This document shows positions 3,830 to 4,323 of a stretch of 6,146 bases of DNA, piece by piece (the first letter of the stretch is position 1; each line of letters opens with the position of its first letter). This stretch comes from Escherichia coli (lineage in GTDB: Bacteria > Pseudomonadota > Gammaproteobacteria > Enterobacterales > Enterobacteriaceae), in NCBI RefSeq assembly GCF_003334355.1, contig NZ_QOWP01000067.1, one strand, 5' to 3'. Both the position numbers and the translations under genes were made by a program. The notes beneath the pieces are model-generated. The model made no database searches. It saw nothing but the letters and a program-made list of their open reading frames with translations, and had not been told where the DNA came from.

Positions 3830-3859
3830 TTGACGGTGTGGTTTTGACGGGCGTAGTAT
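3830..3859 (+). promoter_or_regulatory. Sigma70-like promoter: -35 TTGACG (3830-3835), 18-bp spacer, -10 TAGTAT (3854-3859)
   Basis: Read from sequence; lies immediately upstream of the LexA boxes and the glycine-rich ORF. A second TTGACG at 3844-3849 is an alternative -35. Confidence 0.55.
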
Positions 3860-3866
3860 TTCGAAT

Positions 3867-3897
3867 ACTGTATATAAACACATTGTTATAAATACAG
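3867..3897 (+). promoter_or_regulatory. Tandem overlapping LexA (SOS) boxes of colicin-promoter type: ACTGTATATAAACACAT + TGTTATAAATACAG
   Basis: Box 1 is CTGT-N8-ACAT (3868-3883); box 2 ends in ACAG (3894-3897). Architecture resembles the ColE1 cea dual box as I recall it (CTGTATATAAAACCAGTGGTTATATGTACAG); sits just downstream of the -10, as in colicin operons. Confidence 0.6.
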
Positions 3898-3933
3898 TTT
3901 TTGCTGTTTTTAAAAGTCAAAGAGGATAATTTT

Positions 3934-4323
3934 ATGAGTACAGAGTTAAATAGCGGTACTGTCGGTGGTTTTGGTCACATGGGACCAAATGACCCCTACA
4001 ATGATGGTCATAGCGGCTCTGGAAGTTCGGGAGGTAGTTTTAACGGTGGTGGTAATGGTGGCCATGATAATAGTAGTGGTTCATCTTATACTGCATCCTT
4101 TGGTCTCATCACTGGCCGACACCCGATAACTGTCCCAGGTACGAAGAATATTAATTCTGTCGATCTTTCTGCTGTCATTAATAACATTATACATCATGAA
4201 GGTGCACGCAATAACATGTACCTAGATACTGCGAACAATGTAAGAGTGGGAGTGACGGGCACTGGCTGGCAATGTCTAGCAACGGCAGGCATTTCGGCTG
4301 AGGGTAAAAGAACTTTCCGCTAA
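3934..4323 (+). CDS. Glycine/serine/asparagine-rich small protein (129 aa), putative SOS-induced bacteriocin-like protein or colicin translocation-domain-like fragment; family not recognised
   Basis: ATG 3934 with RBS 'aagagga' 8 nt upstream (the track's 3901 start is an in-frame TTG inside the LexA boxes). N-terminal 60 aa (MSTELNSGTVGGFGHMGPNDPYNDGHSGSGSSGGSFNGGGNGGHDNSSGSS) resemble colicin N-terminal glycine-rich domains in composition; the C-terminal 70 aa match nothing I know. AT-rich relative to ISCR2/sul2. Confidence 0.65.
   Translation: MSTELNSGTVGGFGHMGPNDPYNDGHSGSGSSGGSFNGGGNGGHDNSSGSSYTASFGLITGRHPITVPGTKNINSVDLSAVINNIIHHEGARNNMYLDTANNVRVGVTGTGWQCLATAGISAEGKRTFR

Follow-up and report, generated by a model that had tools for sequence, protein, structure and literature searches.

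What a colicin-style SOS promoter is doing in front of an open reading frame (ORF) of only 129 codons is the question raised by positions 3830–4323 of a 6,146-nucleotide stretch of Escherichia coli DNA (contig NZ_QOWP01000067.1 of assembly GCF_003334355.1; this whole stretch is referred to below as the window). An earlier interpretation, made from the letters alone (the sequence-only reading), had preferred a novel small SOS-inducible toxin and had offered, as its second option, what is left of a bacteriocin operon after the insertion sequence (IS) element ISCR2 had displaced its distal genes. Our analyses favored the second option. We consider it highly probable, at roughly 0.88, that 3830–4323 is a relic, left by the colicin-like bacteriocin operon of a ColE1-type plasmid that belongs to the p9123 family. 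Judged by its sequence, the 129-residue "protein" is a dead chimeric remnant, the product of an ordinary IS-truncated gene and not a new toxin.

The evidence came from a tblastn search with residues 1–103 of the ORF, which led to pKAM546_6, a 4053-bp plasmid of Enterobacter roggenkampii in which the gene continues to 260 codons. Residues 1–103 are identical at 103 of 103 positions to the 260-aa protein of pKAM546_6 and the two sequences diverge afterwards. Window positions 1268–4250 are collinear with pKAM546_6 at 99.4% identity, and pKAM546_6 has the full gene and a convergent gene exactly where the window has ISCR2 and the sulfonamide resistance gene sul2. By these alignments, a 260-aa gene has kept its 5' end unchanged in the window, from the promoter, the LexA operator and the ribosome-binding site (RBS) to codon 103.

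The ORF itself occupies 3934–4323 on the plus strand, including the stop codon and with its ATG at 3934, and consists of 103 native codons joined to the end of ISCR2. Its native part, codons 1–103 plus the first base of codon 104 (3934–4243, plus strand), was delimited by its identity to the pKAM546_6 protein, with collinearity ending at 4243. Base-by-base comparison placed the switch at 4243|4244, within codon 104, where ACA (Thr) becomes AGA (Arg). From the same base onwards, tblastn and a comparison of element termini identified the left (terIS) end of ISCR2, read in frame as codons 104–129 (RVGVTGTGWQCLATAGISAEGKRTFR) followed by TAA (4244–4323, plus strand). The ISCR2 match starts at this base, GAGTGGGAGTGACGG, in four unrelated left contexts (the window and the loci L005, L017 and L018), and this convergence identifies 4244 as the canonical terIS terminus of the element. 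Residues 104–129 alone were found at 100% identity in about 1900 ISCR2-bearing plasmids of many genera. The element is complete (ISVsa3; 4244–6095, plus strand, 1852 bp), is 99.9% identical to the L005 copy and carries an IS91-like ISVsa3 transposase annotation; its transposase gene, rcr2, is annotated at 4367–5860 on the plus strand. As a side observation, the 6-bp sequence AGTGGG lies directly past the junction both in the target gene (pKAM546_6 1460–1465) and at terIS positions 2–7 (window 4245–4250); this identity could be due to chance, or to microhomology involved in the formation of the junction.

These results revised several details of the sequence-only reading. ISCR2 does not start about 40 bp downstream of the ORF, as had been stated, but at 4244, inside codon 104, and it supplies the last 26 codons and the stop. 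The 70-aa C-terminal domain said to match nothing resolves into the opening 44 or so residues of a T4-lysozyme-like domain and 26 translated ISCR2 residues. The preferred small toxin is thereby replaced by an in-frame fusion of 103 native codons with an ISCR2 end. It had also been proposed that a match to the N-terminus of a known full-length colicin would speak against novelty; in substance such a match was found, since the ORF begins as the N-terminus of the 260-aa protein, although that full-length protein is unnamed and is a "hypothetical protein" everywhere. Other elements of the earlier description stood, including the strong RBS ahead of a 129-codon ORF and the Gly/Ser/Asn-rich character of its first 60 residues, of which 58% are Gly, Ser or Asn.

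The native part encodes a disordered, Gly-rich translocation domain (residues 1–58) followed, according to the structural model described below, by the first helix and strands of a lysozyme domain, which include Glu89 and Asp98. The window ORF has these two residues; at the ISCR2 junction Arg takes the place of Thr104, and all that follows is foreign. The first helix and first strands of the two-lobed T4 lysozyme (T4L) fold are therefore kept (residues 75–103) and the C-terminal lobe is gone. A complete C-terminal cytotoxic domain is found in the intact homologue and is missing from the window, where the native gene stops at codon 103 of 260. As Thr104 and the entire C-terminal lobe are lost, the window product cannot be a muramidase, and we infer that it does not function as a toxin. 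The 129-aa ORF had no match in Pfam, even at E ≤ 10, and none in NCBIfam or PHROGs. The matches returned by phmmer against the PDB (a cyanovirin linker and CagT) were rejected as spurious, being driven by the Gly-rich stretch.

The deletion extends well beyond the toxin gene. In the window, 1092 bp of the ancestral plasmid have been replaced by 3170 bp carrying ISCR2 and sul2, a segment made up of 4244–6146 plus 1–1267, with sul2 at 356–1171 on the minus strand. With these 1092 bp went the last 473 nt (the distal 60%) of the 783-nt toxin gene, a 26-bp spacer and 593 nt of the 600-nt convergent gene. At the other junction the plasmid sequence returns at 1268, where 7 nt of the convergent gene of pKAM546_6 are still present, so that the last trace of this gene is ATGAAAC (1268–1274, minus strand), its start codon and four further nucleotides, after which the alignment with pKAM546_6 diverges. 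Apart from these 7 nt, no cognate immunity gene adjoins the ORF in the window, and no lysis ORF was found in the window downstream of the 129-codon ORF, in agreement with the earlier statement that neither gene follows it. A producer lacking its immunity gene could not have been under selection to keep the toxin toxic. We also observed that the region upstream of the immunity gene (about 1275–1330, minus strand) is retained and points into sul2. The ATG of sul2 is on the same strand, 97 nt downstream of the junction, and its expression may be aided by the immunity promoter, which is presumably constitutive.

The regulatory region upstream of the ORF supports the same origin. The sigma-70 promoter reported earlier was confirmed on the plus strand, with a -35 element TTGACG (3830–3835), an 18-bp spacer and a -10 element TAGTAT (3854–3859), which together match the consensus at 9 of 12 positions. 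It is followed by LexA box 1, TACTGTATATAAACACATTG (3866–3885), whose core CTGTATATAAACACAT has one mismatch to CTGT-N8-ACAG, by LexA box 2, ACATTGTTATAAATACAGTT (3880–3899), which overlaps box 1, and by the RBS AAGAGGA (3920–3926, plus strand), 7 nt before the ATG; the AAAGAGG block is kept in all aligned bacteriocin leaders. We scored LexA sites with a position-specific scoring matrix built from 17 chromosomal E. coli LexA sites of the published compilations, which themselves score 13.5–28.3 bits; the best site in shuffled sequence had a median of 8.1 bits and a 95th percentile of 12.6 bits. The three highest-scoring sites in the whole window were an ISCR2 site at 4330–4349 (22.7 bits), box 1 (19.2 bits) and box 2 (10.5 bits). 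The claim of two overlapping LexA boxes thus held for the strong box 1 and less well for box 2, which is weak on its own, though it lies at the position of the second box of the colicin A gene, caa. Cores of the form CTGT-N8-ACAG with at most one mismatch occurred 8 times in the window, compared with 1.8 expected; a search of the window with the full 20-nt LexA consensus, allowing up to three mismatches, found no match.

Homology to known bacteriocin promoters provides independent and stronger evidence than the LexA-site scores. Sensitive blastn of 3822–3940 retrieved the promoters of colicin A (pColA, 77.5% over 86 nt), of cloacin/klebicin-type tRNase bacteriocins and of alveicin B, which bears out the earlier description of the promoter as colicin-style. 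In the alignment with caa the -10 element TAGTAT and the core of box 1 are identical, and the positions of the -35 element (TTGACA in caa) and of box 2 coincide; the columns of box 1 are invariant across six aligned bacteriocin promoters. LexA regulation of the caa promoter is well established. On this basis 3830–3859 is a colicin-type promoter, homologous to that of caa and predicted to be under SOS/LexA control. The colicin A operon shares with the window its -35 and -10 elements, box 1 and the place of a second box that overlaps it, and differs in that its leader has an additional insertion of about 80 nt ahead of the RBS, in the left half-site of box 2 (ATTG in the window, where the box is weaker, and ATGT in caa), and in its product, a 592-aa pore former with a lysis gene downstream. 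The window promoter is identical in pK666_5k, a plasmid with an intact gene. In pKAM546_6, whose gene is also intact, the -10 element is AAGTAT (position 1057) compared with TAGTAT in the window (3854) and pK666_5k, and this may be a promoter-down mutation.

The nature of the complete gene was approached through its relatives. The 260-aa protein represents 160 member sequences on at least 1000 contigs, and there are about 20 clusters of full-length relatives at 40–80% identity, most of them with a precomputed assignment to Pfam PF00959. The family occurs in Enterobacter, Klebsiella, Kosakonia, Citrobacter, E. albertii and E. coli, and all members are annotated as hypothetical. Searched as a single sequence, the 260-aa protein matched Phage_lysozyme (PF00959) at 1.4e-3 and Pesticin (PF16754) at 1.7e-3 in Pfam, and nothing in NCBIfam. 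A profile of 17 family members matched T4 lysozyme in the PDB at E = 3.7e-10, and the intact family gave an "endolysin" match at 2e-8 in PHROGs. Residues E89, D98 and T104 are invariant in the 17 sequences and align to E11, D20 and T26 of T4L, the residues given as the key catalytic Glu11, Asp20 and Thr26 of that enzyme in the pesticin paper (PMC3390615). The AlphaFold 2 (AF2) model of the 260-aa protein had a mean predicted local distance difference test (pLDDT) score of 75.5, with residues 1–58 below 50 (disordered) and residues 60–260 mostly above 85. The top Foldseek matches of this model were T4 lysozyme (template modeling scores normalized to the target of 0.6–0.7), the phage endolysin AbLys1 and pesticin-T4L chimeras. 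Family alignment and model together show that the predicted intact protein joins a disordered N-terminal domain to a T4-lysozyme-like one that has a Glu/Asp/Thr triad.

The N-terminal domain links this protein to other colicin-like proteins. Its first 24 residues are 92% identical to those of a 447-aa Enterobacter pore-forming colicin-like protein (PF01024), and near-identity of a 24-aa N-terminus across different killing domains is the domain shuffling typical of colicins. The shared N-terminus suggests that both proteins take one import route and that the killing domain has been exchanged. Inspection of residues 1–50 of the pore former showed an N-terminus (MSTELNSGSVGGFGHMGKNDPYNDGHSGSGSSGG...) almost identical to that of the lysozyme-type bacteriocin. 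No recognized TolB or TonB box was identified in the N-terminal domain, and its motif GFGHMGxNDPYNDG matches no TolB or TonB box known to us. A complete SOS-type operon with a relative is present on p1303_5 of E. coli 1303 (locus L015, 1278–2860, minus strand), where TTGACA and a double LexA box (AACTGTATATAAAACTAGTGGTTATATATACAGTT) precede a gene for a 252-aa lysozyme-type colicin homologue. Downstream of it on the same strand are an ORF for a 159-aa protein with a signal peptide and a gene annotated as colicin lysis gene. The genome paper of E. coli 1303 labeled p1303_5 as "cryptic". About 70 plasmids in PLSDB have relatives about 45% identical, likewise all annotated as "hypothetical".

The partner gene is the presumed immunity determinant. 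A convergent gene for a signal-peptide protein of 199–215 aa adjoins the toxin gene in five contexts, and its products have 37% identity between the two most distant pairs. The protein had no match in Pfam or NCBIfam, and Foldseek of its AF2 model (pLDDT 85) against the PDB returned nothing better than E = 0.38; given the absence of a family or fold match, it cannot be linked to Ivy, MliC, PliG or other known inhibitors. From its position and its signal peptide, the convergent gene is presumed to encode the periplasmic immunity protein of the 260-aa toxin.

The best reading of all this evidence is that the intact system consists of an unnamed colicin-like bacteriocin of the pesticin (muramidase) type and its periplasmic immunity protein. 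Its fold, catalytic residues, promoter and synteny are shown by sequence comparison and modeling. In the mechanism that we propose, SOS induction of the intact operon would lead to production of the 260-aa muramidase bacteriocin, which would be imported into a target cell via its disordered N-terminal domain; the lysozyme domain would then hydrolyze peptidoglycan in the periplasm, and the product of the convergent gene would protect as a periplasmic immunity protein. The ancestral plasmid lost the distal toxin gene and the immunity gene when it gained ISCR2 and sul2.

Several points weigh against this reconstruction, or at least against its finer parts. Killing, muramidase activity and immunity conferred by the convergent gene are what we infer, and the evidence for the immunity role is synteny and a signal peptide only, as family and fold searches returned no match. 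The single-sequence Pfam matches of the 260-aa protein are weak (about 1e-3). LexA box 2, taken alone, scores below the weakest genuine site used for the matrix (10.5 and 13.5 bits, respectively). The 1092 bp could have been lost by ISCR2 insertion followed by deletion, or by recombination. In addition, the approximately 100% identity among copies of the relic would fit a 129-aa product that is neutral, harmful or useful.

The stump, searched by tblastn with residues 1–103, is present in 164 PLSDB plasmids of the p9123 family, and the relic in 119 of 5426 complete E. coli genomes; the deleted segment was found in none of these 5426 genomes. In PLSDB the intact gene or the deleted segment occurs in only five plasmids, all from Enterobacter and Klebsiella. 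The copies of the relic are all about 100% identical, and this near-invariance points to conservation through recent clonal spread and not through selection.

Might the 129-aa ORF nevertheless be a genuine novel small SOS-inducible toxin-like protein? Its promoter and LexA box are intact, its RBS is strong, its frame is open, and it is annotated as a coding sequence in about 160 plasmids. However, its last 26 codons and stop are ISCR2 terminal DNA common to about 1900 unrelated plasmids, and its first 103 codons come from a 260-aa family whose members are conserved over their full length at 40–80% identity, a fragment that ends after the first strands of the lysozyme fold, before Thr104 and the C-terminal lobe. 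It matches nothing in Pfam, NCBIfam or PHROGs and has no signal peptide, and lysis and immunity genes are absent, so that we regard a new toxin as very improbable. We give just as little credence to a functional role for the truncated protein through its N-terminal domain, for example as a decoy that keeps the full-length bacteriocin from being imported and thereby replaces the lost immunity. The presumed import domain, residues 1–58, is wholly kept. However, with no signal peptide and no lysis or release gene, the product should remain in the cytoplasm, apart from the import machinery of the outer membrane and periplasm; we found no precedent for such a decoy, and the absence of the intact gene from all 5426 E. 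coli genomes implies that E. coli hosts seldom meet the toxin.

A different proposal concerns the present role of the relic and is compatible with its being a bacteriocin remnant. The relic promoter probably still fires on SOS induction, to judge from its sequence, giving the chimeric peptide and onward transcription into ISCR2. It may have been exapted to drive strong SOS-inducible read-through into rcr2, coupling ISCR2 to DNA damage more tightly than the element's own promoter does. The relic promoter is homologous to that of caa and lies on the same strand as rcr2, which starts 433 nt past the ATG of the ORF and about 500 bp from the promoter, and no intrinsic terminators were predicted in 3700–4400, a prediction that is blind to Rho-dependent termination and RNA instability. 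The element has a LexA box of its own, GACTGTATGTAAACACAGTA (4330–4349, core 4332–4347), a perfect CTGT-N8-ACAG that overlaps a -10 element, TAGACT, and is separated from the rcr2 ATG by 17 nt (4350–4366). This box is already described: the rcr2 promoter (P_rcr2) is bound by LexA in vitro and is reported to be extremely weak even when de-repressed (bioRxiv 10.1101/2025.11.21.689736). Set against such a role, most members of the family (the p9123/pE2348-2 type) have an ISCR2 that breaks off at window position 4772, with strB-strA next after it on the opposite strand, so that read-through would be antisense to strB and not useful, and clonal descent fully explains retention of the promoter. We consider exaptation unlikely on balance, yet clearly more plausible than a toxin or decoy role. 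If it were true, the SOS response to antibiotics would mobilize ISCR2 and adjacent resistance genes in this plasmid lineage.

The bacteriocin relic lies on a plasmid of familiar type. The window is a small ColE1-type plasmid with RNAI at 1509–1610 on the minus strand, and 3780–4366 is 100% identical to many sul2 plasmids of the p9123, pE2348-2 and pSS046_spA family, in about 160 of which (the p9123 family) the 129-codon ORF is annotated as a "hypothetical protein" coding sequence. The window belongs to the same family as p9123, pCERC1, pE2348-2 and pSS046_spA, sul2 plasmids with genes cut by ISCR2 or IS91-family insertion. In pE2348-2 the ORF and both junctions are identical to those of the window. 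It differs, as do p9123-type relatives, in that ISCR2 ends after its first 529 bp and gives way to strB-strA-sul2, whereas in the window ISCR2 is complete and strA-strB are absent. Since pE2348-2 and the window have the same two backbone junctions, one ancestral event was followed by rearrangement within the resistance segment. Branger et al. listed the p9123 (RelN-RNA type 1) family without a colicin operon. Divergent from the bacteriocin promoter is a 162-aa ORF (3276–3764, minus strand) that partly matches NF038291, "plasmid replication DNA-binding protein" (3e-11, below the cutoff), and a shorter version of it is annotated as "entry exclusion protein 1" in pKAM546_6.

These findings correct the annotation of the "hypothetical protein" of about 160 p9123-family plasmids (pE2348-2, pSS046_spA and others), which is a bacteriocin stump fused to ISCR2. 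They indicate that the ancestor of a sul2 plasmid family now spread worldwide was a small bacteriocin plasmid of an Enterobacter/Klebsiella type, which lost its toxin and immunity genes on gaining resistance. The stump leads in turn to an unstudied, uncharacterized family of colicin-type bacteriocins that are SOS-regulated and T4-lysozyme-like and whose candidate immunity protein has an unmatched fold. The ancestral gene encodes an unnamed bacteriocin of a known kind; our literature search found no name or earlier description of the 260-aa bacteriocin or its relic, and a prior remark in the pCERC1 and p9123 papers (Anantham & Hall 2012; Enne 2004) is possible.

Among small bacteriocins that act in the periplasm, colicin M (cma/cmi) has a length of 271 aa and resembles the intact system in its size and site of action, in having an oppositely oriented immunity gene and in lacking a lysis gene. 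It differs in being a lipid II phosphatase and not a muramidase, with no relation in sequence or fold. Colicin Z (cza/czi, pColZ) resembles the intact system as a small, SOS-regulated, peptidoglycan-degrading colicin encoded on a plasmid of about 4 kb with a convergent immunity gene and no lysis gene. However, the 237-aa Cza has a colicin Js-related C-terminus where the 260-aa protein has a T4L-like domain, the 151-aa Czi has four transmembrane segments and no signal peptide where the present candidate is a soluble signal-peptide protein, and the colicin Z promoter has a single SOS box. We rejected a relation to colicin Z, since the sizes, the type of immunity, the number of SOS boxes and the domain homology all differ.

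Pesticin of Yersinia pestis (Pst, with its immunity protein Pim) is 357 aa long, compared with 260 aa for the intact protein. The model of the latter has no separate folded receptor-binding domain and consists of the 58-aa disordered N-terminus and the lysozyme domain only, its immunity candidate of about 200 aa has no detectable similarity to anything, and the window copy, being truncated, cannot act. The essential residues of pesticin are E178, T201 and D207 (PMC3390615), compared with the T4L-like E89, D98 and T104 of the 260-aa protein. The two systems agree in their modular colicin-like build with a C-terminal activity domain of T4-lysozyme fold and in a neighboring gene for a periplasmic signal-peptide protein of presumed immunity function (PMC3390615), and pKAM546_6 resembles the pesticin system in having no lysis gene. 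According to the pesticin paper of 2012 (PMC3390615), pesticin was at that time the sole known muramidase bacteriocin, with colicin M the sole other one known to act in the periplasm, and the intact family and its partners are worthwhile candidates for this reason. The intact proteins and their unclassifiable periplasmic partners are cheap, testable candidates for new narrow-spectrum protein antibiotics and for a new lysozyme-inhibitor fold. Pesticin is the closest functional analogue of the protein whose first 103 codons survive in the window.

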